A DNA stretch of 64,000 nt from a virus, in IMG/VR virus record IMGVR_UViG_3300040801_001572, positions 32,001 to 96,000 of that record; one strand, 5' to 3'. Shown here piece after piece: positions 47,802 through 61,650 of the stretch. Both the position numbers and the translations under genes were made by a program. The notes beneath the pieces are model-generated. The model saw only the letters and a program-made list of their open reading frames with translations, searched no databases and was not told the origin of the DNA. Each line of letters opens with the position of its first letter. Positions within the stretch are counted from its first letter, which is position 1.

Positions 47802-47890
47802 GGTGGCTGTGACGAAATTGGTAGCCGTGCAAGGTTGTGACCCTTGTGTCTGTAATGGACGTGGGAGTTCGAGTCTCCTCAGTCACCCCA
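47802..47890 (+). tRNA. tRNA-His(GTG) with G-1:C73 and an unusual long variable arm
   Basis: Cloverleaf; CAAGG-TTGTGAC-CCTTG; encoded CCA. Confidence 0.9.
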
Positions 47891-47965
47891 AAGAGCATTT
47901 GTAATACCCCAAGAACTATGTGACCTCAACCTTGGCATATAAATGAATCACATAGGAGAAATGTT

Positions 47966-48343
47966 ATGATTTACGTAGAAGACTTTCAGTCTTGGGAAGA
48001 TGTTGAGCAGTGCTTCAACATGAAAGAGGATAATGCAATTCCGTTATACGCTGAGTATACCTACGAGAACTACGATGGCTCTGCTTTCGTGTTGTATGTT
48101 GATCGTCGTGATATGCAGTTGTATGCGGTATACGGAGGACACTGTTCTTGCTACGGCTTAGAAGACCAGTGGGATCCTGAGCATATTCCTTGGAATGTAT
48201 CTGCAGAGATGGTAGGTAAAACTGCTAGCTTAGGTGGATACGAACAGGTTGTTCTTGACATGATAAACTCAATCGTGGGCTCCGGTTCCGAAGAGGACAT
48301 CATGCAAGGATTAACTGTGTTCAAACTAAAGCACTCAGTGTAG
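47966..48343 (+). CDS. Hypothetical protein (HCSCYGLE motif)
   Basis: GGAG SD. Confidence 0.65.
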   Translation: MIYVEDFQSWEDVEQCFNMKEDNAIPLYAEYTYENYDGSAFVLYVDRRDMQLYAVYGGHCSCYGLEDQWDPEHIPWNVSAEMVGKTASLGGYEQVVLDMINSIVGSGSEEDIMQGLTVFKLKHSV

Positions 48344-48359
48344 GAAACTACACTGTTTT

Positions 48360-48434
48360 CTCCCGGTCGATTATTGGTTAAATCATCTGCCTTTCAAGCA
48401 GAAGCACGGAGTTCGATCCTCCGTCGGGAGACCA
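48360..48434 (+). tRNA. tRNA-Glu(TTC)
   Basis: TCTGC-CTTTCAA-GCAGA; CCA. Confidence 0.88.
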
Positions 48435-48437
48435 AAT

Positions 48438-48580
48438 TAGGTAGTATGCTACGAACCTCACATGGAGGAGACGCGGATCTACCGAGTCGTTAGAATAGAT
48501 GATTAGCATGAACCTTGCTCGACCATCTAATAGTTCTAGACTATTAGACTCAAGCGACTGGATTGCTAGTGTACTACCTA
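48438..48580 (+). ncRNA. Candidate ~145-nt rod-shaped RNA between two tRNA-Glu genes
   Basis: 14-bp closing helix TAGGTAGTATGCTA/TAGTGTACTACCTA plus inner helices. Confidence 0.45.
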
Positions 48581-48595
48581 GCGGCGGGCTTATAT

Positions 48596-48683
48596 GTCGT
48601 AGTGGACGAATGGTAGAGTCGCCGGGCTTTCACCCCGGAGTTGCGTATGCATGTTGCGAGTTCGAGTCTCATCTACGATTCCA
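48596..48683 (+). tRNA. tRNA-Glu(TTC) with long variable arm and U73
   Basis: CCGGG-CTTTCAC-CCCGG; CCA. Confidence 0.8.
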
Positions 48684-48705
48684 AACAAGTTTTATAAATA
48701 GGTGT

Positions 48706-49365
48706 ATGATCTACATTGTTTATAAAACAACAAATACTGCTAACGGAAAAGAATACATCGGATGCCATAAAACAAAAGACATTGACGATGGCTATTTAGG
48801 GTCCGGAAGATTGCTTCGAGAAGCAATAGTTAAATACGGCATAGATTCTTTTCGTAGAGAGATTATTGCTATATTAGATAGCGAAAAAGAAATGTTTGCG
48901 TTAGAAGCAAGTATTGTTGATCGAAATTACGTCGATAGAAACGATACATATAATTTAACATTAGGTGGCCATGGAGGATTCTCTCATATATCGAAAGAAT
49001 CTATGTTAGAGAGAAACTTGCAAATTAATTCACATCGTGATTACGAGTGTGAACTTTACAAAGAAAATTTAAAAGCATCTCTTGCTACTGTAGACTACAG
49101 CGAAAGAAATAAGCGAAGAAGAGAAACGTTAGTTAATCGATATGGCTGCGTTCCTTCTTCGTTTAAAGGCAGAGAGCATACTGATGAATCAAAGAAGAAA
49201 ATTGGTTCGGCAAATTCAAAACACCAGCAAGGCACCGGCAACAGCCAATACGGAACTTGTTGGATATACAATTTGCATCTAAAGAAGAATCAGAAAATTC
49301 CTAAATGCGATCTTGATGCGTGGCTAGATAAAGGCTGGCACAAAGGTCGTAAGCTAAAATTTTAG
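48706..49365 (+). mobile_element. GIY-YIG (Seg-like) homing endonuclease
   Basis: IVYKTTN...EYIG and YLGSG motifs; TATAAATA + 5 nt + ATG. Confidence 0.87.
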
Positions 49366-49436
49366 GGGGTGCCATATGGGATGGACTTTGCACTTGCACT
49401 GCGAATGGCGGGGATCGTTACCCCGTTCCTCCACCA
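49365..49436 (+). tRNA. tRNA-Ala(TGC) with degenerate D arm
   Basis: G3:U70; TTGCA-CTTGCAC-TGCGA; CCA. Confidence 0.75.
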
Positions 49437-49442
49437 AATTAT

Positions 49443-49519
49443 GCCGATGACGCGTCCTGGGGGACCAACACGACTGTCTATCGTGTGCATGGCGGGTTCG
49501 ATTCCCGTCTTCGGCGCCA
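49443..49519 (+). tRNA. tRNA-Asp(GTC)
   Basis: CACGA-CTGTCTA-TCGTG; G73; CCA. Confidence 0.85.
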
Positions 49520-49589
49520 AACATGATATGTACTTTTCCGTTAGTCAGCTACTCCAGTAGCCGAGAAAATGCCTCTATCAACTTTTTAT

Positions 49590-49677
49590 GCCCCGGTAGG
49601 CGAATTGGTATAGCCAGCAGGCTGAGAACTTGCGTCCCTCTGTAGACTTGTCGGTTCGAGTCCGACTCGGGGCACCA
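49590..49677 (+). tRNA. tRNA-Leu(GAG)
   Basis: GCAGG-CTGAGAA-CTTGC; long variable arm; CCA. Confidence 0.9.
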
Positions 49678-49730
49678 TCTTCATACTAGTTTATTGTGCT
49701 GTACGAAAACTAGTTTATTGTGTTAAAAAT

Positions 49731-49806
49731 GTGTGCGTGACAGAATGGCTAATGTAGCGGATTGCAACCCCGTTTTTTGCTGGTTCGATTCCAGTCGCAC
49801 ACTCCA
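49731..49806 (+). tRNA. tRNA-Cys(GCA)
   Basis: Loop TTGCAAC; U73; CCA. Confidence 0.88.
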
Positions 49807-49814
49807 AATTCCAT

Positions 49815-49888
49815 GCCCGGTTAGTTTAATGGAAAAACATCTGTGTTACATACAGAAGACGTTGGCTCGATTCCAGCACTGGGTACCA
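49815..49888 (+). tRNA. tRNA-Val(TAC)
   Basis: TCTGT-GTTACAT-ACAGA; CCA. Confidence 0.85.
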
Positions 49889-49894
49889 AACAAT

Positions 49895-49972
49895 GGGGGG
49901 TGAGCTAGTCTGGTGATTCAGCGTCCGCCTGAAGAGCGGAAGAACTTGGTTCGATTCCAAGACCCTTCACCA
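49895..49972 (+). tRNA. tRNA-Phe(GAA)
   Basis: TCCGC-CTGAAGA-GCGGA; CCA. Confidence 0.9.
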
Positions 49973-50016
49973 AATATAGATATTTCCGACTAAATACAAA
50001 TTTAGGAGGAGATATC

Positions 50017-50385
50017 ATGGCAGTAAATCAAATACCGAGCAAACATGCTTTTGCTTTTACAGTAACTGACACCGCTGGTGTAGAACATAAACTTTGGTGG
50101 GATCTAGTGCAAAGTGTATATTTTGCATGGGAAACCGGAGTGTTCCTTATACACCTAGACGACGGTGTTTACAAGCGTATCGCCGCGGCCGACCTGTACC
50201 CAGAATCACAAGCTCCAGAAGGGCGATATGTGAAATTGGTAAACGATTGTCGTAGTACGTTTAATGAAAAGATTTCTAGCATGTTTCTTACTGCAGAGTT
50301 AGGTGAACACCCAGTCGATGACGAAGCATTTGATGCACTAGTCACCGGACTAGTGTGGGATCCTGAAGCACAACAGTTCAAATAA
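50017..50385 (+). CDS. Hypothetical late protein
   Basis: AGGAGG SD inside a hairpin that also contains TAAATA. Confidence 0.7.
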   Translation: MAVNQIPSKHAFAFTVTDTAGVEHKLWWDLVQSVYFAWETGVFLIHLDDGVYKRIAAADLYPESQAPEGRYVKLVNDCRSTFNEKISSMFLTAELGEHPVDDEAFDALVTGLVWDPEAQQFK

Positions 50386-50386
50386 C

Positions 50387-50470
50387 GCGGGCTGCAGGCT
50401 AACTGGCGTAGCCGACGGGCTTCCACCCCGTTCCGAAAGGTTCAGAGTTCGATTCTCTCAGTCCGCTCCA
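50387..50470 (+). tRNA. tRNA-Gly(TCC) with 8/4 fold and a short variable-arm hairpin
   Basis: GCGGGCTG/CAGTCCGC acceptor; 4-bp T stem; U73; CCA. Confidence 0.82.
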
Positions 50471-50476
50471 ATTTTT

Positions 50477-50550
50477 GCGTGTGTAGTATAATGGTATTAT
50501 GCTAGGTTGCCAGCTTAGTGATGCAGGTTCGATTCCTGTCACCCGCACCA
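50477..50550 (+). tRNA. tRNA-Gly(GCC)
   Basis: CTAGG-TTGCCAG-CTTAG; CCA. Confidence 0.88.
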
Positions 50551-50556
50551 AACAAT

Positions 50557-50627
50557 GGGTCGTTGCTCTGGGAGCAAATTGGATTCCAAACCCAATGAGG
50601 AGGGTTCGAAACCTTCACGGCCTGCCA
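50557..50627 (+). tRNA. tRNA-Trp(CCA) with short D arm
   Basis: Loop TTCCAAA; G73; CCA. Confidence 0.8.
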
Positions 50628-50689
50628 ATCATGCACATATAAGTCGGTAGGTACGTTGATCCTGACTATATCACTGTGCACTAAATAAT

Positions 50690-50742
50690 GCCCCGGTAGT
50701 GTAATGGCCATCACGCTTGACTGTCTATCAGGAAACCGGAGT
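50690..50742 (+). pseudogene. 3'-truncated tRNA-Asp(GTC)
   Basis: 5' acceptor strand, D arm and CTTGA-CTGTCTA-TCAGG present; breaks at the T loop where the HNH promoter begins. Confidence 0.75.
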
Positions 50743-50758
50743 AAAGATAAATAGTATT

Positions 50759-51466
50759 ATGAATTATACAAGAATTTATAATGCTATTATTTCGAGAGCA
50801 AAAATGCGTCCGGTTTTAGAAGGATACGCCGAAAGGCACCACATAATTCCTAGATCATTAGGCGGCACAGACGATTTAGATAATCTAGTTATGTTAACAG
50901 CCAAGGAGCATTTTATATGCCACCTGCTTTTAGCTAAGATGTACGAGAAAAATTCTGTGGAATGGCAAAAGATGACCAAGGCATTGATGATGATGCGAGC
51001 GTCTGGTAATGCACATGACAGATATACGTCGGCAACATACGAGTATTTTAAAGAGGCGTTTTCCGAAGCACAGAGTTATGCACAACGAGGCAGTCGAAAT
51101 AGTAGTTATGGAACTCGATGGATTCACAGTTTAGAATTTAAGCAATCTAAAAAAATCTGTAAAAAGGCACCTTTGCCTGATGGCTGGAACGAAGGCAGAA
51201 TTATTGACTTTGAAAAACATGCCTCTGCTATGATGAAGAAAAAGTTATTAGAAGATCAACAAGCAGAATGGGTTGCCAGGTTAGGCATAATATTAGAATA
51301 TTATAGAGATAACGATATTTCCATCAGGGCGTTGTCGAAAAAGTTTAATGTAAACGGTAACATTTATAAGCAGTTTGAAAAATATTACCCAGAAGAATAT
51401 CGAGATATTGTGATGGATAAGCCTCGCAATAGCAACAAAGGAAAAGGTAGATATATGCCTGCGTAG
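50759..51466 (+). mobile_element. HNH homing endonuclease
   Basis: ERHHIIPRSLGGTDDLDNLVMLTAKEHFICH; TAAATA + 5 nt + ATG. Confidence 0.87.
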
Positions 51467-51532
51467 CTCAATCGGGAGAGCACCGGCCTGTCACGTCGGA
51501 GGTAGTGAGATCGAAACTCATCGCAGGCGCCA
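51457..51532 (+). tRNA. tRNA-Asp(GTC)
   Basis: CCGGC-CTGTCAC-GTCGG; G73; CCA. Confidence 0.9.
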
Positions 51533-51605
51533 AATTACTTAAACGGAGAATGTATGTTCAACACTAGTTAAGCACTTCTTATTCATGGAATAAGGAGGTG
51601 CTATT

Positions 51606-51830
51606 ATGAACAGAGCACAATATATGACTCCTGAGCAAAAAGCTCTTTGGGAGTCCGCTGAAAAGCGTGAGGGTCGCAAGATTAAAAGGACCCACGAGAA
51701 CTGCCGCAAAATCCTAGGCCGTTACATTACGGTCAAGGACAATGCGGGAAACAAAACCCGCGTGTTTCGCCCTGGCGTGGCGAGACCTGGCAAGACTGCG
51801 CGAGATCGCGCAAGGAGGCGCGGGAAGTAA
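51606..51830 (+). CDS. Small, very basic protein (74 aa)
   Basis: TAAGGAGGT SD; Arg/Lys-rich. Confidence 0.7.
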   Translation: MNRAQYMTPEQKALWESAEKREGRKIKRTHENCRKILGRYITVKDNAGNKTRVFRPGVARPGKTARDRARRRGK

Positions 51831-51837
51831 AAACAGA

Positions 51838-51928
51838 GGAGGGTGATCCTGTCTGGGACAGGCGTGGTCTTGAAAACCAATGGAGGGTAGAAATATCCTT
51901 GCAGTTCGATTCTAGCCGCCCTCTGCCA
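51838..51928 (+). tRNA. tRNA-Ser(TGA) with tRNA-Sec-like / allo-tRNA-like 8/4 architecture
   Basis: 8-bp acceptor; 6-bp D stem CCTGTC-TGG-GACAGG; long variable arm; G73; CCA. Confidence 0.8.
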
Positions 51929-51932
51929 AATT

Positions 51933-52143
51933 GCGTCGGTGTCTTCCATGCTTAACTTTTAGCGAAGTGAGGGGAGACGAACGTATAGCTTGTACGAACG
52001 GTGTCCTAACGCTGCGCCACGTTTCTCGCTATTCGTTAGGTGTCAAGCTTAAGAAGCGGCCAACAAAACAGGTTATTTCGGGCAGGGCAGAGACGAGCGT
52101 AACCCCCGAATGACTTGGGCAGGAGTTGCGACCTGTCGACGCA
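51933..52143 (+). ncRNA. ~210-nt structured RNA closed by a tRNA-like acceptor/T-arm domain
   Basis: GCGTCG/CGACGC closing helix stacked on GCAGG-AGTTGCGA-CCTGT; long internal hairpins. Confidence 0.55.
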
Positions 52144-52151
52144 CTTATTAG

Positions 52152-52201
52152 CCGTCCTGATGATGACTTAGAGGAGTCGAAACACCACATGGTGTAGGCG
52201 G
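52152..52201 (+). ncRNA. Type I hammerhead ribozyme
   Basis: CCGTC / CTGATGA / GACTT-AGAG-GAGTC / GAAA / ACACC-ACAT-GGTGT / A / GGCGG; predicted cut after A52196. Confidence 0.85.
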
Positions 52202-52253
52202 AGTAGAAGCGTAACTGTAAATGATAAATAAAGTAGTCGGTAAAGGCTACTTT

Positions 52254-53033
52254 ATGAATTATGAAAAAATTTACAGTTCTTTAATAGAAAGAAGCAGACA
52301 TAGAAAACTCTCAGGGTATGTCGAAAGGCACCATGTTGTTCCTAGGTGTCTCGGTGGAACTGACGACGCTAGTAATATCGTCGAACTCACTCCAGAAGAG
52401 CACTATTTGGCTCATCAACTACTAGTCAAAATGTATCCAAAATCTTCGCCTTTAGTTCGAGCTGCTCAGATGATGGTACCGAACCGCCCTTCTAATAAAT
52501 TATACGGCTGGGTCAGAAGACGATTTGCTAAAATTCAAAGCGAAACGCAATCCGGTAGAGGTAATACCCAATTTGGTACTATGTGGATCTTTAATGAGGA
52601 ACTTAAGGAATCTAAGAAGATACCGGTTAACTCGGAAATACCGAAAGGTTGGGAAAAAGGCCGAGTTGTAAAATTTGATGAGAAGTTTAGAGAAAGGCGC
52701 GAAACTGAGCAGAACAGAAAACCTCGTGTATTATGTTCGGAAAGAGAGAAGAAATTAAGACGCATTAAGTCTAAGCATAGAAAAATAAGAAGATCAGAGA
52801 AATATATGTCTGCAAAAACAAAAAAACTTTATTTAGAGTTTCTTTCAGCAGATTTGTCATTAAGAAATTTTGCAAAACAAAAAGGCATAGTGCCGATGAC
52901 ACTTTCTAATTGGTTTAATAAGTATATCGATGAGTATGATATAATACCCAGAACCAAAGCAAACAAACAATTAGGGGCGGACGTATCCTTGGGAGATACA
53001 ACAGGTTGTAACCCTGTCGCGAAGGCTAGGTAG
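52254..53033 (+). mobile_element. HNH homing endonuclease
   Basis: ERHHVVPRCLGGTDDASNIVELTPEEHYLAH; reading frame ends inside tRNA-Tyr. Confidence 0.87.
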
Positions 53034-53057
53034 GTTCGATTCCTACCCGCCCCACCA
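52974..53057 (+). tRNA. tRNA-Tyr(GTA)
   Basis: ACAGG-TTGTAAC-CCTGT; variable arm; CCA. Confidence 0.9.
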
Positions 53058-53097
53058 GATTATTTCGCGGAGTTAACTACTCCGCCACCAAATTTTT

Positions 53098-53192
53098 GCC
53101 GGATGGTGTAATTAACAAGCCTCTTTGAAAGCGTAGGTTTAACCTATTTGAATGCTGAGGAACTGCAGGTATCGAATCCTGCTCCGGCCCCA
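53098..53192 (+). ncRNA. CCA-ended tRNA-like RNA lacking a canonical anticodon loop
   Basis: GCCGGA/TCCGGC acceptor; GCAGG-TATCGAAT-CCTGC T arm; CCTC/GAGG stem capped by a 33-nt insert. Confidence 0.6.
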
Positions 53193-53211
53193 TTTATTTT
53201 ATAGAAACAAT

Positions 53212-53285
53212 CTGTGCGTAGCTCAACGGTAGAGTGCTGGCTTTGGAAGCTTGAGGTGCTGGTTCGACTCCAGTCGCACTGACCA
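53212..53285 (+). tRNA. tRNA-Pro(TGG)
   Basis: Loop TTTGGAA; C1:G72; A73; CCA. Confidence 0.85.
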
Positions 53286-53293
53286 AATTCAAA

Positions 53294-53367
53294 CTCCCCT
53301 TAGTTCAATGGTAGAACGGTCCGTTTGGGACGGAGTGACGTTGGTTCGATTCCAACAGGGGTGACCA
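53294..53367 (+). tRNA. tRNA-Pro(TGG), second isodecoder
   Basis: Loop TTTGGGA; CCA. Confidence 0.85.
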
Positions 53368-53423
53368 AACATTGCAATAGATCTGTACAAGTGTTAATAT
53401 TTAATTTTCAGCGAGAATTCACT

Positions 53424-53726
53424 GTGCAAAAAGTTATTGAATTTATTGCAGCAAACATCGACACTGTTGACACGTTCTTCTCCTCCAGATTTGATTCTGT
53501 TGAGGTAACTGCGATAAGCGCAGATCGTGTTTATGTGAACGTAACTGTATCGGACGACGACAAGAAGGCGTTCGGTGAGAAAATGAAGAAGCTCTCGGTG
53601 TTTAAAAAGGCATATGTTGAAACAACTGATGTGAACTTTTCCGTCAGCGATATCTATGACGAAAATTTCGTTGTCCCGAAGGGTGCATTTGACTATAAGA
53701 CGAAGTATCAAATCTACGAAGTATAA
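53424..53726 (+). CDS. Hypothetical protein
   Basis: In-frame GTG after the tRNA; the longer ORF-track start overlaps tRNA-Pro. Confidence 0.55.
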   Translation: MQKVIEFIAANIDTVDTFFSSRFDSVEVTAISADRVYVNVTVSDDDKKAFGEKMKKLSVFKKAYVETTDVNFSVSDIYDENFVVPKGAFDYKTKYQIYEV

Positions 53727-53758
53727 TTCCGGAGAGTCTAAACACGATAAATAGCATA

Positions 53759-54259
53759 ATGCGACATTTCGAACTTAGAGAAGCACGTGAACTACCGTGG
53801 AACGGTAACATTAATGTTGGCTGGTGGGAAGACCAGTCTAAGCTTACATTATATCACGGCACTCATGTCAGCAATGTCGATTCTGTTATCAAGAACGGCT
53901 TAAACAAAGCAGACCCCGACACCGGAATGATATCGCTTACACTTGATCCTTTTACTGCTCGCGGATATGCAGCAATGCACGGCGGAGAAGCAGAGTTTCG
54001 TAAAGCAGGAAACAAAGCACAGCACGTTCCGATGAATCAAAGAGCAGTGTTTGTGTTCGACATCCCAACAGAATGGATCAAAGCAAATATGGATCCACGG
54101 TTCGGAGGTAATGTAGGATCGGCAGCAGGTAAACTGTCCGATCGTGAGCAATACGAACAATGGACTGGATCGGATACAGAATACTATCAGCTAACAGAAT
54201 TTCGAGTTAGCAAAGCAGTACCTCCCCGCTTTATCAAAGGCTACATGCTTACCAAATAA
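53759..54259 (+). CDS. ADP-ribosyltransferase-fold protein (Tpt1/KptA NAD-binding-lobe-like)
   Basis: LYHGT...IKNGL, ISLT.D..TARGYA and E.RV..AVPPRFI motifs; leaderless late start. Confidence 0.65.
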   Translation: MRHFELREARELPWNGNINVGWWEDQSKLTLYHGTHVSNVDSVIKNGLNKADPDTGMISLTLDPFTARGYAAMHGGEAEFRKAGNKAQHVPMNQRAVFVFDIPTEWIKANMDPRFGGNVGSAAGKLSDREQYEQWTGSDTEYYQLTEFRVSKAVPPRFIKGYMLTK

Positions 54260-54326
54260 ATTTGCACTTCTAGCTGTACTTTGCTAGACTGTTTTCTACT
54301 CAAAAGCTTGACAGCAGGTATACAAA

Positions 54327-54800
54327 ATGCTGAATGATATTGTTATCCATGTCGGACTAGATCCACTCGGCGACCTAGTTGCCATGCTCAATGGCAATAG
54401 TGGAGGAACAGAAAGAATAGCAGAGGGCATATACCAAATTGGTCATTTCAATTTTAACCATGTGCTCGAGGCTAGTGGTTACCGACTTGAAGAATACCCT
54501 AAAGATCTTGTGGATTCCGGCGTTGATGACGATCCTTTTGGCTGGGGGTTTAGTCCGTACGGTGTGTGCGATGATCCGCAGCAAATACTAGATCGCTGCC
54601 CTACACTGCAATCACCGGACAGAGATTTTGTGATATCTGTTACTCCGATTCTAAAAGAGAATCAGGAAAAACATGGCGGTTGGCGCTGGCATAAATGGGG
54701 CGAGTATATCGGTGTTCACGAGATTACTAGCGAGTATCTCTACGATGAGCCAGTTGTAGAAAAGGTGTACTGCTACCACATTTACGAAATAATAGAATAA
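54327..54800 (+). CDS. Hypothetical protein (GGWRWHKWGEYIG motif)
   Basis: ORF track. Confidence 0.65.
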   Translation: MLNDIVIHVGLDPLGDLVAMLNGNSGGTERIAEGIYQIGHFNFNHVLEASGYRLEEYPKDLVDSGVDDDPFGWGFSPYGVCDDPQQILDRCPTLQSPDRDFVISVTPILKENQEKHGGWRWHKWGEYIGVHEITSEYLYDEPVVEKVYCYHIYEIIE

Positions 54801-54801
54801 T

Positions 54802-54886
54802 TCCAGGGTGCGCAGAGAGGTAATGCAGCCGGCTGTTAACCGGTCGTCGAAAGACATCGTTGGTTCGATCCCAACCCCTGGAGCCA
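54802..54886 (+). tRNA. tRNA-Asn(GTT) with non-canonical variable-arm hairpin
   Basis: GCCGG-CTGTTAA-CCGGT; GTC-GAAA-GAC arm; U1:A72; G73; CCA. Confidence 0.88.
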
Positions 54887-54887
54887 A

Positions 54888-55157
54888 TTAACCCCACGGT
54901 GCAATTTCTAATTCGACACCGTGTTTTAGTTGTTGTTCGGCACGTTTGCGGACAGCATCATCCCAGTTTTTAGCAAAAGCATAACCTTTGCCAAATTCGT
55001 CCACAATTACGTATTCCTGTTCAGTTACTTCAGGCGGAGTAGGATACCAACGATCGGTAATTTCGTCGTAAGTCATGCCTCGGTCTTTTTGTACCTGTGC
55101 ATGACGCTTCTTTGAAGGAAACTTCACGACGTTTTCGGTTATCTCGGAAACTTTCAT
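54888..55157 (-). CDS. Hypothetical late protein, antisense to the array
   Basis: TAAATA + 5 nt + ATG on the minus strand; N-terminus MKVSEITE. Confidence 0.65.
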   Translation of the reverse strand: MKVSEITENVVKFPSKKRHAQVQKDRGMTYDEITDRWYPTPPEVTEQEYVIVDEFGKGYAFAKNWDDAVRKRAEQQLKHGVELEIAPWG

Positions 55158-55171
55158 AAATATATTTATCT

Positions 55172-55260
55172 GGAAGGTAAATCAGTCAGGGTACTGAGGG
55201 GACCTGCTAAGTCTTTCGTCTGCTTAACGCGGATCTGTTTCGATTACAGTGCCTTCCGCC
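55172..55260 (+). tRNA. tRNA-Ser(GCT) with 8/4 fold; CCA not fully encoded
   Basis: GGAAGGTA/TGCCTTCC; GGGAC-CTGCTAA-GTCTT; long variable arm; G73. Confidence 0.8.
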
Positions 55261-55321
55261 CTTGGGGCAACATCTGCCCAGTGTACGAATACAAATGCAG
55301 TGTGTTCGAATAAATAGTGTT

Positions 55322-55945
55322 ATGTATTACACGATTTATAAAATCACCAATCAAATCAATGGCAAGCAATACATTGGTGCGCATAAGACCACAGATTTAG
55401 AAGATGATTATATGGGCTCGGGGAAGCTATTAATCCGAGCTATTGAAAAGTACGGCATAGAAAATTTCAGTAAAGAAATTTTAGCTGTATTTGATTCTGC
55501 AGAAGAGATGTTCTCACTTGAAAAAGAACTTGTGAACGAAGAGTACGTTAATAGAAACGATACTTATAATTTGACAAAAGGAGGCTCCGGCGGTAATCGA
55601 CTTTTACCGGGAAATTCGACTTGGTCATCCGAGCATTCTAAAATGATGACAGAGAAAAGATTAAAAATTTATACCGAAGATGAACGACGTGAATGGTCTA
55701 GAAAAGGCGGCCTGGCAATAAAGAAAAAAGGCACTGGTATATTTTCTCCGGAAAACAAAAGAAACAAGGGTAAGCCCCATTCCGAGGAGCACAAGAGAAA
55801 GATAGGAAAGGCAAATTCTGTGTCTCAGAAAGGATCTAAGAATTCTCAGTATGGAACTAGGTGGATTACCAATGGAATTCTTAATAGAAAAATTAAAAAT
55901 GGCGACTGTATTCCGGAAGGTTGGGTATATGGTCGTACACGATAG
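55322..55945 (+). mobile_element. GIY-YIG (Seg-like) homing endonuclease
   Basis: IYKITNQINGKQYIG and YMGSG motifs; TAAATA + 5 nt + ATG. Confidence 0.87.
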
Positions 55946-56018
55946 GCCCTTAGCTTAATGGTTAAAGCGTCGGACTCTGACTCCGAATATATCTGTTCGA
56001 CTCAGATAGGGCCCGCCA
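55944..56018 (+). tRNA. tRNA-Gln(CTG)
   Basis: TCGGA-CTCTGAC-TCCGA; unpaired 1:72; G73; CCA. Confidence 0.88.
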
Positions 56019-56052
56019 ATTTGATAAATATGTGTAACTTGGGAGGTTACAC

Positions 56053-56334
56053 ATGTCTAAAGAAATGCGAAGAATAATGAATATTTTAGAAAATTATCAT
56101 TATGTATTTGCAGATGAAGCACACGACACCCCTGAAGAATTTCGTAAAAATTTGCATAAGGAAGTTATTGCAAATTATTTGAAAGAGAAACATGGTTTAG
56201 ACTTCAACGAATCTGATGAAGATTATATCGCTGCGCTTCAACAAGGCATTGGGCATTTGATGGCGTTAGATCTCTCAAACTCAGAATTAGAAAGCTACTC
56301 ATATCGGAGCGATGTTCCGCTATTTAAGGAATAG
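56053..56334 (+). CDS. Hypothetical late protein (MSKEMRRIM N-terminus)
   Basis: GGAGG SD inside a hairpin; TAAATA upstream. Confidence 0.7.
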   Translation: MSKEMRRIMNILENYHYVFADEAHDTPEEFRKNLHKEVIANYLKEKHGLDFNESDEDYIAALQQGIGHLMALDLSNSELESYSYRSDVPLFKE

Positions 56335-56360
56335 CCCTAACACAACCCACTAAACACCTT

Positions 56361-56436
56361 CCCTGGCTAGCATAATGGTAAATGCACTCGGCTGATAACC
56401 GAGCGAGTCTGTGTTCGATTCACAGGTCAGGGACCA
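56361..56436 (+). tRNA. tRNA-Ile(GAT)
   Basis: CTCGG-CTGATAA-CCGAG; CCA. Confidence 0.9.
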
Positions 56437-56476
56437 AATTATTACAAGTAGTCAAAGTAAACAACTAAATACGCTT

Positions 56477-57133
56477 GTGAAATATTATATTTTATACAAG
56501 ACTACCAACTTAATAACAGGCCAATATTATATAGGTAAACACGAGACAGACAATTTAGACGATAATTATCTGGGCTCAGGGCTGCGGTTAAATCGTGCAA
56601 TCAAAAAATACGGTAAAGAGAATTTTAAAAAAGAAATTCTTTGTTTTCTAGAAAATTCGGCAATATTAAACGATTCAGAAAAAATGTTAATAAATGAGCA
56701 CTTGGAAAATCCGAAATGTTATAATTTAGCACCCGGAGGCCAAGGAGGCCACGTGTATGCTCATTATACAGAAGAAGATAAGAAAAACATTTATGCTAAG
56801 ATTAGCAAAACTTTAAAAAGAAAGAAAATCGCTCCACCGAGGCCCGACCTAAAGGGCAGAACACTGTCCGACGAACACAAGAGGAAGATTAGCGAATCAC
56901 AGAAAGGTCGCAAAAAGCCCACTAGGTCAGCTGAACACTGTAGGAATATTAGTAAATCTCTCAAGGGTAAGAAGCTAAGTAAAAACATGAAGCTTCGTCT
57001 GTCAAACAAAATGAAACAGAATCATGCCAACCATAAAGAATTAACTTGTCCCCACTGCATGAAAAATGGAAAAAGTGGATCTATGTATAGATGGCATTTT
57101 GATAACTGCAAAAATAAGCGCGGGTTAGAGTAG
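56477..57133 (+). mobile_element. GIY-YIG homing endonuclease with NUMOD3-like repeats and CxxC module
   Basis: LYKTTNLITGQYYIG and YLGSG motifs; TAAATA + 5 nt + GTG. Confidence 0.85.
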
Positions 57134-57192
57134 TGGTTACTCATGGGTCTCATAAGCCCACTAGGTCGGTTCGATTCCGGCACCCGCTACCA
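57119..57192 (+). tRNA. tRNA-Met(CAT), initiator-like
   Basis: C1 mismatch; A11:U24; three G:C pairs in the anticodon stem; CCA. Confidence 0.85.
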
Positions 57193-57200
57193 AACACAAT

Positions 57201-57277
57201 GCCGCCGTAGCCCAATTGGCAGAGGCAGTAGGTTTAGAACCTATTCAGTGTGAGTTCGAGTCTCACCGGCGGCACCA
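57201..57277 (+). tRNA. tRNA-Leu(TAG) lacking the long variable arm
   Basis: GTAGG-TTTAGAA-CCTAT; A73; CCA. Confidence 0.88.
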
Positions 57278-57375
57278 ATTAGAGGAGAAATGTTATGTGC
57301 AACTTACGAGTGAAACAACAAACCATAACAATGGCTCCAGTAACTCTAGGTACGATTTTACTCGTGCCTCCCTAT

Positions 57376-57452
57376 GGGTGATTAGTTCAGCTGGTTAGAA
57401 CGGCGGCCTGTTAAGTCGTATGTCCCCGGTTCGAGTCCGGGATCGCCCTCCA
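57376..57452 (+). tRNA. tRNA-Asn(GTT), second isodecoder with U73
   Basis: GCGGC-CTGTTAA-GTCGT; CCA. Confidence 0.85.
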
Positions 57453-57459
57453 AATTCAT

Positions 57460-57488
57460 TTGCATTGTTGTTCCAGAGAGTGTATAAT
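57460..57488 (+). promoter_or_regulatory. sigma70 promoter, leaderless start of the sbtA-like gene
   Basis: TTGCAT-17-TATAAT; ATG 7 nt downstream. Confidence 0.7.
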
Positions 57489-57495
57489 TCCCCCT

Positions 57496-58419
57496 ATGGA
57501 TCCTGCAATTTTATTTTTTGTTTTAGGCTTTATTGCAACACTACTGGGTAGCAATATACGTTTTCCGGAATCAACTGCAAAGGCAGTTAGTCTTTACTTG
57601 CTAATCGCAATCGGCTATAAAGGCGGAATGTCGATGGCAACCGCTGCACTGAGTTATTCAATGGCAATGTCACTAGGACTTGCTTTAGCTGCTAGCGTTG
57701 TTGTTCCGTTAGTCGCATATCTGTTGCTAAGAAAATTAGAAAAACTCGAAGATGCTGTGAGCATTGCAGCAACATATGGTTCGGTTAGTGCAGTGACGTT
57801 TGTCACAGCCGTTGCATTCTTAGAGGCAGCAGGCATAGTGTTTGGCGGTTACATGGTAGCAGCACTGACTGTGATGGAAGCACCTAGTATTGTAATGGCA
57901 CTACTACTTTATAACCGAAGCACTAGTGAAAGCAAAACTTCACTGAAAGAGTTAGGTAGAATTATCTTTGCAGAAAAAAGCATTGCTATCTTGTTAGGTA
58001 GTATGTTTATCGGATATTTTGCAGGTGCCGAATACCAATTAGCACTAGCAATTAAAGGTGATATTTTTAAATTTGCCCTTTGTTTATTTTTGTTAGACAT
58101 GGGCGCAAAGGTTGGTGAACGTTTCCGAGTAACAAAAACACTTGAAATTCATAATGTTCTTTTTGCTCTGTTAATGCCAATTACAGCAAGTATTACCATG
58201 CTGTTAGTGGCTAGTATGTTATCACTTCCGGTAGGTAATGCTTTGTTGCTTGCAATACTGGCAGGATCAGCAAGCTATATTGTTGTTCCGGCCGTTATGC
58301 AAGAAGCTATGCCTGATGCAGATCATGCAAAATATTTTACAATGAGCCTAGCTATCACTTTTCCGTTTAACGTAATTGTTGGCATACCTGCTTATTACTA
58401 TTTGTTGCTGTTGCTATGA
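57496..58419 (+). CDS. sbtA: Sodium-dependent bicarbonate transporter family permease (SbtA-like)
   Basis: DPAILFF.LG, IGYKGG, AATYGSVSAVTF, MEAP, SASYI.VPA and ITFPFN motifs; many hydrophobic segments. Confidence 0.82.
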   Translation: MDPAILFFVLGFIATLLGSNIRFPESTAKAVSLYLLIAIGYKGGMSMATAALSYSMAMSLGLALAASVVVPLVAYLLLRKLEKLEDAVSIAATYGSVSAVTFVTAVAFLEAAGIVFGGYMVAALTVMEAPSIVMALLLYNRSTSESKTSLKELGRIIFAEKSIAILLGSMFIGYFAGAEYQLALAIKGDIFKFALCLFLLDMGAKVGERFRVTKTLEIHNVLFALLMPITASITMLLVASMLSLPVGNALLLAILAGSASYIVVPAVMQEAMPDADHAKYFTMSLAITFPFNVIVGIPAYYYLLLLL

Positions 58420-58673
58420 AAGCAGTTGTTGTACAAGAATCCGATATAGAAAAGGCACTAACCAAAGCAGGTTATATGTCTACACCATACGGCGATAAAC
58501 ATATAGCAAGAGTGTTGGACATTTCAGAAAACCAATCTGTGGTCACACTTAGTACAGGCGAATCTTACTTTTGTGAAACCACAGAAGGACCTAGCTCACA
58601 CGCATACATGAAAATATTCACTGTAGTGGGCAACGTACCTGTTCCGGGAATCGAAGTTGTTCGATTCCCATAA
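58416..58673 (+). CDS. Small protein coupled to sbtA, possibly a diverged SbtB/PII-like partner
   Basis: ATGA overlap; position matches sbtB, sequence resemblance weak. Confidence 0.4.
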   Translation: MKAVVVQESDIEKALTKAGYMSTPYGDKHIARVLDISENQSVVTLSTGESYFCETTEGPSSHAYMKIFTVVGNVPVPGIEVVRFP

Positions 58674-58674
58674 T

Positions 58675-58751
58675 GCCGGTGTACCAGAATAGGCATATGG
58701 ACCTGGTTCAAACCCAGGGGTTTGTGGGTTCGACCCCCACCACCGGTACCA
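58675..58751 (+). tRNA. tRNA-Leu(CAA) lacking the long variable arm
   Basis: CCTGG-TTCAAAC-CCAGG; CCA. Confidence 0.88.
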
Positions 58752-58823
58752 AACATGCGATATACACAGGAAAGCCTCCCTGTTGTGAGCAGGGCAAAGC
58801 GCCTGCAGTCACTATCGCAAATT

Positions 58824-59013
58824 TTTCAGAGGAAAGTCAGGACACGGCGGAAGCCAGGTGGGAGACGAAAGTCGCTAGAACCACAAGATACGAAAGCGCC
58901 GTGCAACACAAACAGTCCAGAGATAAGCTTCAATTGTAGACGGACGGGTAGTGGCACTAGATGAATGACGGTTGAAAAAACAGAATCCTGCTTACGTAGA
59001 ACCGTCGCTGAAA
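58824..59013 (+). ncRNA. rnpB: RNase P RNA, minimal and apparently circularly permuted
   Basis: GAGGAAAGTCAGGAC...AGATGAATGAC...ACAGAATCCTGCTTA conserved regions with compensatory P4 changes; P2 and P3 partner strands lie 3' of P4. Confidence 0.85.
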
Positions 59014-59016
59014 CTT

Positions 59017-59093
59017 GCTCCTAAAGCATTTATTTGGATGATGCCTGGTTTTGTAATCCGGAGAATGGGGTTCGATTCCTCATGGGAGCACCA
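59017..59093 (+). tRNA. tRNA-Thr(TGT)
   Basis: GCTCCTA/TGGGAGC; loop TTTGTAA; CCA. Confidence 0.85.
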
Positions 59094-59111
59094 AATTTAA
59101 TAAATAGCTGT

Positions 59112-59573
59112 ATGAAGCTATACGAAGTCATACAAGAAGAACCATTCGACAGTTCCGAAGTCGGAATGGGCCTTACTCAATACTATAATAGCAATTTTGT
59201 TATGTGGGGCGGAATGCGTTCCGGCAATAGTCCTGCTGGTCAAACACGATTGAAATTTATGGTATTTGATCGAAAGCAACTCGAAGCAGGCGTCGATCAA
59301 GAAGAAGCAGAGATAGGGTTTGTAGAGTTGTTTGTGAAAGACGGGACACAAGAAATAGTTGGTCTAGTTAATATCGAACTCAACAAAGATTTGAGAAAAA
59401 CAGGTTACGGAAGAAAGCTAGTCCGTGATATAGTCGATACCACACAGTCAGGTCTGACTGTTAATGATATCCAGAAACGAGCTAAGGGTTTTTGGAAAAA
59501 GCAAGGCGTAGAATTTACCGATAAAGCAGAAAGATTTGGTAAGATAGATAAAGACCAAAACTCCGATATGTGA
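59112..59573 (+). CDS. GNAT-family acetyltransferase
   Basis: RKTGYGRKLV (motif A) and AKGFWKKQG (motif B); leaderless late start. Confidence 0.75.
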   Translation: MKLYEVIQEEPFDSSEVGMGLTQYYNSNFVMWGGMRSGNSPAGQTRLKFMVFDRKQLEAGVDQEEAEIGFVELFVKDGTQEIVGLVNIELNKDLRKTGYGRKLVRDIVDTTQSGLTVNDIQKRAKGFWKKQGVEFTDKAERFGKIDKDQNSDM

Positions 59574-59605
59574 TAAATACAACAAAACAACACACGGAGT
59601 TTAGC

Positions 59606-60520
59606 ATGTCTTCAGAAATGCGCAAACTAATGGAAGCTGTAATTGGCATGACTTCCGCAGGTGATACTACACCTGATGCTGTTCCAGTAAAAGAAGAACC
59701 AGAACATGCGGATGATGTAATCCGTCTAAGCATGTTGCAAGAAGAAATGCTGGATAATCTAAGAGAATTCAACGACATTGTAGTCAAGATTGCAGGCTAC
59801 GATAGTTCAGTCCATGAAAGATTCAAGCGCCATGTATTTGCTAATATTATGGCAGCAATTGATAATAGTACCTACGGTAGCCGTGGGCACGACATGAACG
59901 ACATTATTACAGACATTCAAGAGAGAATTGATACAGATAGTATTGATGCGCCGGATGTCGATATGGATCAGCTTGAGCGTGACGTAGAGCAGTCATTTCG
60001 CCAAGAAGAATCTTACTTACTAGATGATTACAGTGACCCCGACAGCTTGATGCAAATGCTAAAAGCAGAAGGACACGAAATGGTAGCAGCAGGCCGCGAT
60101 GCAAAGATAGTTGCTGCAATCTTAGGAAAGAAAGCAGGCCTAGACGCTACTAATACCGAAATACTTTATCACGAATTGTTAGATAAAGAGTATGATAGAT
60201 TCCGTGAATCGGTTACTGCAGAATTAGATGAAATTGAAAAGAAATTAGCAGTTTTCGAAAGCAAGATTTTACTAGCAGAAGATCATCAACAGCCTTTGCC
60301 AGGTGCAATTTCTGCTAAGTTGCAACAAGCGCAAAAGCGATATGATGCAGCTAGATCAGGTCTAAGCATTGCGCATAGACTTCCAGATGGCGAAGAAAAA
60401 GCAATGCACATGAAGCGTATTTTTGGAAATATGAATCGTCTTCGTGCTGAAGTTAAAAGAGTCGAAAAAGAACTTGCCCAAGCAGAACAAGATCTTTCAA
60501 GGATGGTAGGTAAGCTGTAA
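59606..60520 (+). CDS. Hypothetical late protein (MSSEMRKLME N-terminus)
   Basis: GGAG SD inside a hairpin with TAAATA in the loop. Confidence 0.7.
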   Translation: MSSEMRKLMEAVIGMTSAGDTTPDAVPVKEEPEHADDVIRLSMLQEEMLDNLREFNDIVVKIAGYDSSVHERFKRHVFANIMAAIDNSTYGSRGHDMNDIITDIQERIDTDSIDAPDVDMDQLERDVEQSFRQEESYLLDDYSDPDSLMQMLKAEGHEMVAAGRDAKIVAAILGKKAGLDATNTEILYHELLDKEYDRFRESVTAELDEIEKKLAVFESKILLAEDHQQPLPGAISAKLQQAQKRYDAARSGLSIAHRLPDGEEKAMHMKRIFGNMNRLRAEVKRVEKELAQAEQDLSRMVGKL

Positions 60521-61080
60521 TGCGCTTAATCGAACTTGACATGAGTCCACAGCGAATGAGGCTAACTCCTGAAGAAATGGAGTTTGTGCTCGATCTTGTG
60601 AAAGACGAAATTATGACTCAGTCAGAACTTTCTGCAAAGGTTAAAGATGCGACAGTTGACTATTCTCGAAATAAAAACAGTTTGAGAATGGCAGCACCCA
60701 GGATTTATACACTGGTACACGGTGAACTTCCTTTAGATATGGAAGACCGAGCAGGTTGGTTTGCCGAGATGCCGAACACAATGATTCGGTTCTTGCAATC
60801 AAAGGGATACGACGTTGCAGACAATATTCGTCGTGCTAAGATTGATGCTAGACACCGAACCAAGAAGCCAACAAGGCAGCAAGCTAAAGACATTATGATC
60901 AGTTATTTTAACGATCATGAGGAACACTTAGACAGAGATGCCGTTGTAAAAAACCGAGAGAAGATACAGAGACAGATTCAACAAGGAGATCACATCGAAC
61001 TTGTGTTTCGTCCTTTCTACCTCGATGAATCTGTTTTTGAATCAATAATAGATCAAAAAGGATTACAGCATTTGCTGTAG
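60520..61080 (+). CDS. Hypothetical protein
   Basis: TAATG coupling. Confidence 0.65.
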   Translation: MRLIELDMSPQRMRLTPEEMEFVLDLVKDEIMTQSELSAKVKDATVDYSRNKNSLRMAAPRIYTLVHGELPLDMEDRAGWFAEMPNTMIRFLQSKGYDVADNIRRAKIDARHRTKKPTRQQAKDIMISYFNDHEEHLDRDAVVKNREKIQRQIQQGDHIELVFRPFYLDESVFESIIDQKGLQHLL

Positions 61081-61092
61081 GAGATTAAAATA

Positions 61093-61545
61093 ATGGATAG
61101 CATTTGGAAATATATTGCCGCAATTTTCACCGGCATTCTTGCACTGCTTGGCATGGGTTGCAGCAACCTAGAGTCAGTCGATCCTGTAGAAACAGGCGAA
61201 GTAATTGGTTTTGTTTACACAATGACCAAGGACGAGCTTGACGAGGATCACCGTGAAGCAGTTGAAGAAGCTTATGCGGTTTTTGTTGAAGTAGTAAACA
61301 ACTTCGACGAGAATGGTAACATCGATCTTAAGCAGACTCTTTTCAATGTACTTGAAGAGAAGTTCCCAGGTGAAACTGGTGACAACGCCCAGACAAAGGC
61401 GATTGTTAAGATGATCGTTAACCGTTACTGGGATCGTGTAGACGAGAAGTATGGCATTACCAACCGTATTCCTAGCGAGCAGATTGCAATCGTTCGTCAG
61501 GTTTACATCGGTATTGAGCGCGGCCTAGGACGCGAAGTAGAGTAA
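61093..61545 (+). CDS. Putative lipoprotein
   Basis: Hydrophobic signal ending LLGMG-C; GGAG SD; downstream hairpin GCCGGA/TCCGGC plus T run. Confidence 0.7.
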   Translation: MDSIWKYIAAIFTGILALLGMGCSNLESVDPVETGEVIGFVYTMTKDELDEDHREAVEEAYAVFVEVVNNFDENGNIDLKQTLFNVLEEKFPGETGDNAQTKAIVKMIVNRYWDRVDEKYGITNRIPSEQIAIVRQVYIGIERGLGREVE

Positions 61546-61576
61546 AACGATAGCCGGATTTATTCCGGCTTTCTAT

Positions 61577-61650
61577 GCCCCCGCCGGCGGATCCGGTCTT
61601 TCGGCTACGAACCGAGATGATGGCGAGTTCGACTCTCCCCGGGGGTTCCA
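61577..61650 (+). tRNA. tRNA-Arg(ACG) with degenerate D arm
   Basis: TTCGG-CTACGAA-CCGAG; CCA. Confidence 0.75.

Follow-up and report, generated by a model that had tools for sequence, protein, structure and literature searches.

The window analyzed here is a 64,000-nucleotide stretch of an IMG/VR viral record that is 114.6 kb long, with an estimated completeness of ~31%. The phage is a myovirus, as its genes for portal, sheath, and baseplate proteins show. Comparison of portal proteins places it closest, among cultured phages, to the PA5oct group of Pseudomonas jumbo phages (57% identity) and to Agrobacterium phage Atu_ph07 (50% identity); neither PA5oct nor Atu_ph07 has a match to RF00010, the Rfam model to which Escherichia coli RNase P RNA belongs. 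A tRNA array with 24 tRNA genes, 23 of which encode CCA, spans positions 47803 to 61650. A long variable arm or a long D loop is seen in several of these tRNAs, a tRNA-Sec-like match (48.5 bits) lies at 51838 to 51924, and a 319-amino-acid open reading frame sits inside the array at 57460 to 58419, just upstream of tRNA-Leu.

Between tRNA-Leu and tRNA-Thr, the plus strand of this large uncultured phage carries a miniature type A-like RNase P RNA of 190 nt (58824 to 59013). The first-pass annotation had already called this segment a minimal RNase P RNA, and a sequence check found each motif that it had named at the position given: GAGGAAAGTCAGGAC at 58829 to 58843, ACAGAATCCTGCTTA at 58980 to 58994, TGACGGTT at 58966 to 58973, AACCGTCG at 59000 to 59007, CTGAAA at 59008 to 59013, and TTTCAG at 58824 to 58829. 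At Rfam gathering thresholds, only tRNAs were reported at the locus. A permissive scan of 58700 to 59150 aligned RF00010 to positions 58798 to 59013 with 28.4 bits (E value of 3e-7 on 451 nt, and 1.8e-8 for the same match over the whole record), which does not meet the gathering score of 100. Searching the whole record with RF00010 gave no second RNase P RNA copy. The features of the locus are collected in Table 1.

Table 1. Features of the RNase P RNA locus and its tRNA neighbors, with the support for each
Feature	Position	Strand	Support
tRNA-Leu(CAA), CCA encoded, upstream array neighbor	58675-58751	+	ARAGORN; Rfam tRNA, 55.5 bits
Structured 64-nt spacer, 7-bp stem around two hairpins	58756-58819	+	Fold z = -3.35, 0/200 shuffles
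Decayed relic of ancestral conventional P2 5' strand, AGTCACTATCGC, inside spacer	~58806-58818	+	Aligns to 5' P2/P3 of L032/L027
P3 3' strand UUUCAG, predicted at or near functional RNA 5' end	58824-58829	+	Pairs with 59008-59013; in MFE folds
CR-I: J3/4 AGGAAAG and P4 5' strand (58834-58842, U58837 bulged)	58830-58842	+	Invariant family columns
P5 5' strand CACGGCG	58843-58849	+	Pairs with 58897-58903; covaries
P6 pseudoknot 5' strand GAAGC	58850-58854	+	Pairs with GCUUC 58927-58931; covaries
S-domain stub: GUGG/CCAC helix around GAC-GAAA-GUC hairpin; CR-II/CR-III absent	58855-58896	+	RF00010 alignment, fold
P5 3' strand CGCCGUG and J5/15 CAA (CR-IV)	58897-58906	+	RF00010 alignment, conserved columns
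P15 (CAC/GUG), P16 (GUCC/GGAC), loop with P6 3' strand (58927-58931)	58907-58956	+	
L15 GGGUA, CCA-binding GGU; P18 absent after 58956	58946-58950	+	
J18/2 CUAGAUGAA	58957-58965	+	Fits RF00010 consensus
P2 3' strand UGACGGUU	58966-58973	+	8 bp with 59000-59007, duplex -10.3 kcal/mol
J2/4 and CR-V: ACAGAA, P4 3' strand (58986-58993), A58994	58974-58994	+	RF00010 alignment, conserved columns
5-nt linker CGUAG in the place of P1	58995-58999	+	Aligns with P1 3'/P1 5' vestige in L032
P2 5' strand AACCGUCG, downstream of P4' (the permutation), family signature ...UCG-CUG	59000-59007	+	
P3 5' strand CUGAAA	59008-59013	+	Pairs with 58824-58829
CUU, tRNA-Thr leader of 3 nt and predicted ribozyme 3' tail	59014-59016	+	
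tRNA-Thr(UGU), long D loop, CCA encoded	59017-59093	+	ARAGORN; Rfam tRNA, 31.7 bits

In the RF00010 alignment, the blocks GAGGAAAGUC, GCAA, CGGGUA, CUAGAUGAAUG, and ACAGAAUCCUGCUUAC all agree with the consensus. CR-I (GAGGAAAGUC, 58829 to 58842) and CR-V (ACAGAA..GCUUA, 58980 to 58994) form a P4 of 8 bp with its bulged U, while CR-IV/J5/15 (GCAA..., 58903 to 58906) and J18/2 (AGAUGAAUG, 58957 to 58967) fit the consensus at family-invariant columns. The L15 GGU and the P6 pseudoknot to the P16/17 loop are likewise in place. What the element lacks, apart from the gathering score, is the S-domain, P18, and a P1 with the order P1-P2-P3-P4...P2'-P4'-P1'. The S-domain and P18 are deleted in the alignment, with ~140 model positions dropped between the P5 strands, where 47 nt (58850 to 58896) stand in place of the CR-II/CR-III specificity domain (P7 to P14). 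The P1, P2, and P3 pairs that the model forces onto the window are largely noncanonical. These results bear out the earlier account of P5, P15, P16, the L15 GGGTA, and a P6-like GAAGC/GCTTC, as well as of an absent P18 and an S-domain of ~47 nt.

We scanned sequence collections for AGGAAAGTCNGGNC followed, after a gap of 90 to 182 nt, by ACAGAANCCNGCTTA; the metagenome scan left out CR-I/CR-V spacings above 151 nt. Contigs matched numbered 12, 15, and 1 in IMG/VR (three gap ranges), 71 in metagenomes, and 22 in a genome collection, the last mostly MAG. In total, the viral, metagenome, and genome collections hold ~100 distinct mini RNase P RNAs. Most lie within or beside tRNA arrays, some also with tmRNA. 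Those of conventional order score 49 to 72 bits with RF00010, under its gathering score. The class is unannotated because every member falls below the Rfam threshold. We found no paper that describes a phage-encoded RNase P RNA, and Rfam 15 is without a family for the minis. The contig of one conventional mini, L010, also carries a GOLLD RNA with an internal tRNA at 5642 to 6103 (RF02032, 178.9 bits), and a conventional mini flanked by tRNAs occurs in the isolate Achromobacter anxifer LMG 26857. The genome collection contributed conventional minis (L118 to L139) on MAG contigs labeled Gemmataceae/Planctomycetia (many) and “Candidatus Shapirobacteria” (2); whether these belong to a prophage, to a misbinned phage, or to the cell as its own RNase P RNA is unclear.

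Nearly all minis have the normal order P1-P2-P3-core-P2'-P4'-P1'. Their 5' flank consists of the P1 5' strand, the P2 5' strand (ending ...CG), and the P3 hairpin, and then AGGAAAG; P2' begins at the UG just past a conserved AAUG, and P1' comes after GCUUA. By spacing from CR-I to CR-V (~90 to 180 nt for the class, 136 nt in the window), S-domain stub, P18 (usually absent), and tRNA-array location, the window element belongs to this class. It shares with conventional phage minis (e.g., L010, L032, L070, and L004) the reduced core, the stub (GGUGGGAG... motif), P6, the tRNA-array context, and the abutment to a tRNA. It differs in that conventional minis place P1 (7 to 12 bp), P2, and the P3 hairpin 5' of CR-I, whereas the window uses strands downstream of CR-V and, immediately 5' of AGGAAAG, has a decayed relic only.

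The core itself is well kept. In 94 conventional minis, 36 columns reach a conservation of 90% or more, and the window does not deviate at any of them, although 25 of these columns were imposed by the search pattern and 11 are independent. This agrees with the call of a minimal RNase P RNA, as do the RF00010 match and the conserved blocks. P5 covaries in relatives. P6 covaries across 10 relatives (GAAGC/GCUUC in the window, AGAGU/ACUCU in L010, UGUAGGU/ACUUACA in L041, and GUAAGAGA/UCUCUUAU in L070), which supports the predicted pseudoknot. The terminal branch is long (0.22 to 0.31 substitutions per site), yet the ~40 base pairs of P2 to P6, P15, and P16 are without exception standard; as far as sequence comparison can tell, this speaks for a structure kept by selection and against decay. 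By descent and in function, the element represents bacterial type A RNase P RNA pared down to the catalytic domain, with catalysis being inferred.

We then turn to strand order. The P2' strand of the window (UGACGGUU) has no good partner upstream; its partner, AACCGUCG, begins 5 nt past CR-V. Directly after it, CUGAAA pairs with the UUUCAG that lies immediately 5' of AGGAAAG. The downstream P2 and P3 strands thus form 8 + 6 pairs with no mismatch and one G-U pair (in P2). An anchored score was computed for a P2 strand plus adjacent P3 strand downstream of CR-V. The window scored 33. Of 20,000 shuffles of the downstream 60-nt flank, 14 did at least as well, and none of the ~100 conventional elements did; the shuffle P value for the window alone is modest, about 7e-4. 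The P2' duplex with the downstream strand has an energy of -10.3 kcal/mol versus -4.3 kcal/mol for the best upstream alternative (GUCA/UGAC). Minimum free energy (MFE) folds of 58824 to 59016 and of 58752 to 59016, the latter with the upstream spacer included, both form the permuted P2 and P3.

These data could instead be read as a mini of conventional order (58798 to 59013) whose P1 to P3 are degenerate, with the downstream complementarity being a chance feature of the tRNA-Thr leader. Upstream AGCG...CAGUCACUAUCG would then pair weakly with UGACGG and ...CGCU, and a weak conventional pairing of GUCA/UGAC plus one further pair is indeed present. In its favor, all of the nearest relatives have the conventional order, the upstream segment shares homology with their conventional 5' strands, and an end-to-end alignment in that order can be forced with cmscan. 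Such an alignment, however, contains many noncanonical pairs, P1 would be only 4 bp, and no P3 hairpin is possible in CAAAUUUUUCAG. The upstream duplex is by far the weaker one, and its strand is locked in a fold of its own: the 72-nt spacer that follows tRNA-Leu adopts a stable three-helix fold, which sequesters the relic P2 5' strand. That fold may prevent mispairing or help to define the 5' end, which is speculation. Chance complementarity also sits poorly with the rarity of the anchored score in shuffles and its absence from conventional homologues, and with the recurrence of the rotated order, with covariation, in two other sequences (see below). We therefore give the conventional reading very little credence. 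The first-pass annotation had proposed a permuted RNA opened in P3, with P2 and P3 strands downstream of P4 and a linker of a few nucleotides for P1, and the shuffles, duplex energies, and recurrence uphold it on these points. It had also named conventional homologues with a P1 as grounds for refutation; the nearest homologues are of that kind, but the upstream CAGTCA...ATCG of the window is only a decayed relic. It had expected, too, that the native sequence would fail to align with RF00010 over the full length; the P1 to P3 pairs are mostly noncanonical and the score is low, but the alignment runs from end to end.

The same rotated order was found in two metagenome sequences, L025 (Ga0307377_10004365) and L054 (Ga0307376_10132191); the core of L054 recurs in L064, from another sample. 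In both, P2 is GAUUAUCG/UGAUAAUC, while P3 is CUGGAAUUUU/AAAAUUCCAG in L025 and CUAAAGUUUU/AAAACUUUAG in L054. The shuffle test gave 0 of 20,000 for each. Three P3 positions are changed on both strands between L025 and L054, and P2 shows four double compensatory changes between these two and the window. All 50 of the P2/P3 pairs in the window, L025, and L054 are standard (3 G-U). As in the window, the P2/P3 5' strands (...UCG-CU...) lie 3' of CR-V, which defines a permuted subclass made up of the window, L025, and L054/L064. RNAalifold returned P3 and P2 as the closing helices on a segment-anchored alignment, but the alignment itself favors those columns. L025 and L054 retain P1, which forms a capped hairpin that separates CR-V from the P2 strand, as is expected when the native ends are joined. 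The permuted copies score 28 to 39 bits with RF00010 versus 63 to 72 bits for their nearest conventional relatives, a drop that is expected if P1 to P3 cannot be aligned in the native order.

L025 (8793 to 9038) and L054 (795 to 1039) also contain a covarying extra hairpin in J2/4, between P2' and ACAGAA (ACUAUAUU...AAUAUAGU versus GCCUCGU...ACGAGGU), that is absent from the other minis read by eye. Promoter and terminator matches around L025 and L054 were no more numerous than in shuffles, and for that reason a TATAAT before the L025 P3 strand was dropped as a start site. One further candidate, L055, scored as permuted at first yet proved to be a tandem duplicate, and the other permuted flags from unanchored scoring were noise.

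Targeted scans yielded no more permuted copies. The lineage word ATATTGGATTATCGCT had 17 matches in IMG/VR, all due to chance, and a search for CR-V followed by TCGCT (3 to 33 nt) or ATCGCT (34 to 64 nt) gave only chance matches and two conventional copies. With three lineage representatives in ~100 minis, the permuted form is thus rare in the collections scanned. No close relative of the window phage was present in any collection searched. The element and conventional L010 had no BLASTN match in 50,697 phage records; relatives sought through the neighboring 316-amino-acid protein (TBLASTN and patterns) were not found in phage records or IMG/VR, and a collection of 5.8 billion proteins returned only that protein itself. 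Within-lineage covariation is consequently out of reach for the P2/P3 of the window, and its support rests on the analogy with L025/L054 and on statistics. For the covariation check that had been suggested, the compensatory changes come from L025 and L054, not from the lineage of the window.

Traces of the ancestral arrangement remain at the locus. Upstream, the relic AGTCACTATCG-C...CAG can be aligned to the 5' region of L032, a conventional mini, and the flank there, CUGCAGUCACUAUCGC-AAAUUUUUCAG, to the P1-P2-P3 that the nearest relatives have in the conventional 5' place (L032: CUGAGUCAUCGCUGGAAACAG). Downstream, CGTAGAACCGTCGCTGAAAC aligns with the same L032 region, from P1 5' through the P3 loop, and in the alignment CGUAGAACCGUCGCUGAAAC spans the end of the conventional P1 5' strand, the P2 and P3 5' strands, and the P3 loop. 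In L025, the upstream relic resembles L004, and the downstream piece aligns with the L004 5' flank plus P1-P2-P3. A tandem arrangement exists in L055 (Ga0265735_100288, oriented 1136 to 1512), where the CR-I of a second mini gene follows the first by 281 nt. Copy 1 lacks part of its P2 5' strand, and its P2' fits the corresponding strand of copy 2, within which the contig ends. L055 is a possible intermediate toward permutation. Separately, L066 has two CR-I motifs 226 nt apart with one CR-V, and L120 has two copies 2.4 kb apart.

Given the homology of both the relic and the new strands and the tandem copies of L055, tandem duplication followed by reciprocal loss is the most likely origin, although the route is inferred. 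A conventional phage mini gene would have been duplicated in tandem, after which the P1'-spacer-P1 segment would have been deleted, copy 2 lost beyond its P3 loop, and the upstream P2/P3 strands of copy 1 left to decay. A maximum likelihood (ML) tree places the window in a clade with five conventional copies, L010, L041, L070, L027, and L032 (100/98 support), and L025/L054 elsewhere. None of 200 bootstrap trees united the window with L025/L054, but an AU test did not reject a single clade (P = 0.39). Two independent permutation events are likely but not shown.

A duplication of this kind need not have left a working gene. The element could be a nonfunctional remnant, i.e., a decaying tandem-duplication product with residual pairing and no ribozyme action, and several observations fit this: its terminal branch is long, the relic means that parts of the locus have already decayed, P1 is missing, its RF00010 score is the lowest among all copies, and there are no expression data. 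Decay does not readily account for the absence of any deviation at the 36 family-conserved columns or for ~40 bp of core helices that are intact while differing from relatives in a compensatory manner. Moreover, the new P2 differs from the ancestral type on both strands, which implies that the strands coevolved after the rearrangement, and the record has no other RNase P RNA copy to which RF00010 points. A remnant is unlikely on this evidence, though it retains some weight. Taken together, statistics, thermodynamics, relic/new-strand homology, and recurrence with covariation in two sequences support the permuted reading.

The model that follows is a prediction. The RNA would begin with the P3 3' strand, opened in the P3 loop, and continue through the catalytic core: J3/4, P4, P5, P6, the 47-nt stub, J5/15, P15-P16 with the L15 GGU, J18/2, P2', J2/4, and P4'. 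The 5-nt linker would then stand in for P1, as the first-pass annotation had it, and the P2 and P3 5' strands would close the chain. P3 would be the helix that closes the molecule, with P2 as a short-range hairpin. We judge it reasonably probable that 58824 to 59016 is such a gene, namely, one for a circularly permuted type A RNase P RNA of ~190 nt that consists of the catalytic domain only. Its catalysis, ends, protein partner, and evolutionary route are all inferred.

No sigma-70-like promoter or intrinsic terminator was found in 58400 to 59300, so the element is probably part of the array transcript and cotranscribed with the tRNAs. CTGAAA ends 3 nt before the start of tRNA-Thr(UGU). The distance given previously is correct, but direct abutment is not special to the permuted form: conventional minis lie 1 nt (L010), 0 nt (L041), 4 nt (L070), and 3 nt (L003) from the downstream tRNA, and abutment is typical of the whole mini class. 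Under the permuted model, the RNase P cut at the tRNA-Thr 5' end (59016/59017), whether due to the host enzyme or to the phage RNA, would create the ribozyme 3' end. We infer that the RNA serves to mature the 5' ends of the CCA-bearing pre-tRNAs that the phage itself encodes, and the CCA-bearing tRNAs and the retained L15 GGU match as substrate and enzyme. RnpA (PF00825) was not found in the 114.6-kb record, whose estimated completeness is only ~31%; the host RnpA protein is our default assumption for the partner, and the RNA would probably act with it.

The structure might also be real without being a general pre-tRNA enzyme, serving as a decoy or sponge for host RnpA or as a cis-acting processing or stability module for tRNA-Thr only. 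The 3-nt distance to tRNA-Thr, the lack of an S-domain, and the failure to find a phage RnpA are all compatible with such a role. A decoy would have no need for the full set of catalytic-core nucleotides or for the L15 GGU, both of which are kept, and L025 and L054 share the design but are not adjacent to a tRNA. We find this explanation quite improbable. Beyond the identity of the element, the evidence is evenly balanced on the wider proposal that phages rewired the mini RNase P RNA, probably repeatedly, by duplication and reciprocal decay, dispensing with P1, and that the product is active and releases itself from a tRNA polycistron.

The core of the element is like that of E. coli M1 RNA (rnpB, RF00010) in CR-I, CR-IV, CR-V, the bulged U of P4, P5, the P6 pseudoknot, P15-P16 with the L15 GGU that binds the 3'-CCA, J18/2, J2/4, and coaxial P2-P3. 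Unlike M1 RNA, it has ~190 nt rather than ~377 nt, an S-domain of 47 nt without CR-II/CR-III, neither P18 nor P1, and a rotated gene order with its 5' and 3' ends in the P3 loop. A precedent for an RNA with only the C-domain is the type T RNase P RNA (RF02357) of Pyrobaculum and other Thermoproteaceae, reportedly described by Lai et al. in PNAS in 2010. This natural RNA has lost almost the whole S-domain and is still a pre-tRNA-processing enzyme, but it belongs to the archaeal type, keeps P1 and the conventional order, acts with archaeal proteins, and shares no common descent with the phage minis. Among tmRNA genes and tRNA genes, permuted forms occur in nature. The two-piece, permuted genes for tmRNA are said to have been reported by Keiler et al. 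in 2000 from Alphaproteobacteria, some Betaproteobacteria, and cyanobacteria. These tmRNA genes set a precedent: in the gene for a structured RNA related to tRNA, circular permutation has arisen naturally more than once. The tmRNA precursor is cleaved into two parts, while the window RNA is expected to remain one chain.

For RNase P RNA itself, the Pace laboratory is said to have used circularly permuted constructs for photo-cross-linking. Engineered permuted RNase P RNAs tolerate joined native ends and new ends elsewhere, but they are laboratory constructs of full-size RNAs. Circularly permuted Bacillus subtilis RNase P RNAs used in folding studies do fold (PMC8632103). No natural permuted RNase P RNA gene appears in a 2024 review of RNase P (PMC11143913) or came up in full-text literature searches; in every natural example from the reviews and papers searched, both ends lie in P1.

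RNase P RNA is one of two universal ribozymes. If the permuted form without P1 is maintained, then neither 5'/3' connectivity nor P1 is essential in vivo. If the model holds, an RNA of ~190 nt would rank among the smallest bacterial-type RNase P RNAs and would offer a minimal scaffold for structural and engineering work. It would also document “permutation by duplication” for a ribozyme, with a tandem intermediate and relics still visible. The finding highlights a class of phage mini RNase P RNAs that standard annotation misses altogether, each one being below the Rfam threshold, and prompts one to ask why a large phage that has a tRNA array should carry a tRNA-processing ribozyme of its own.
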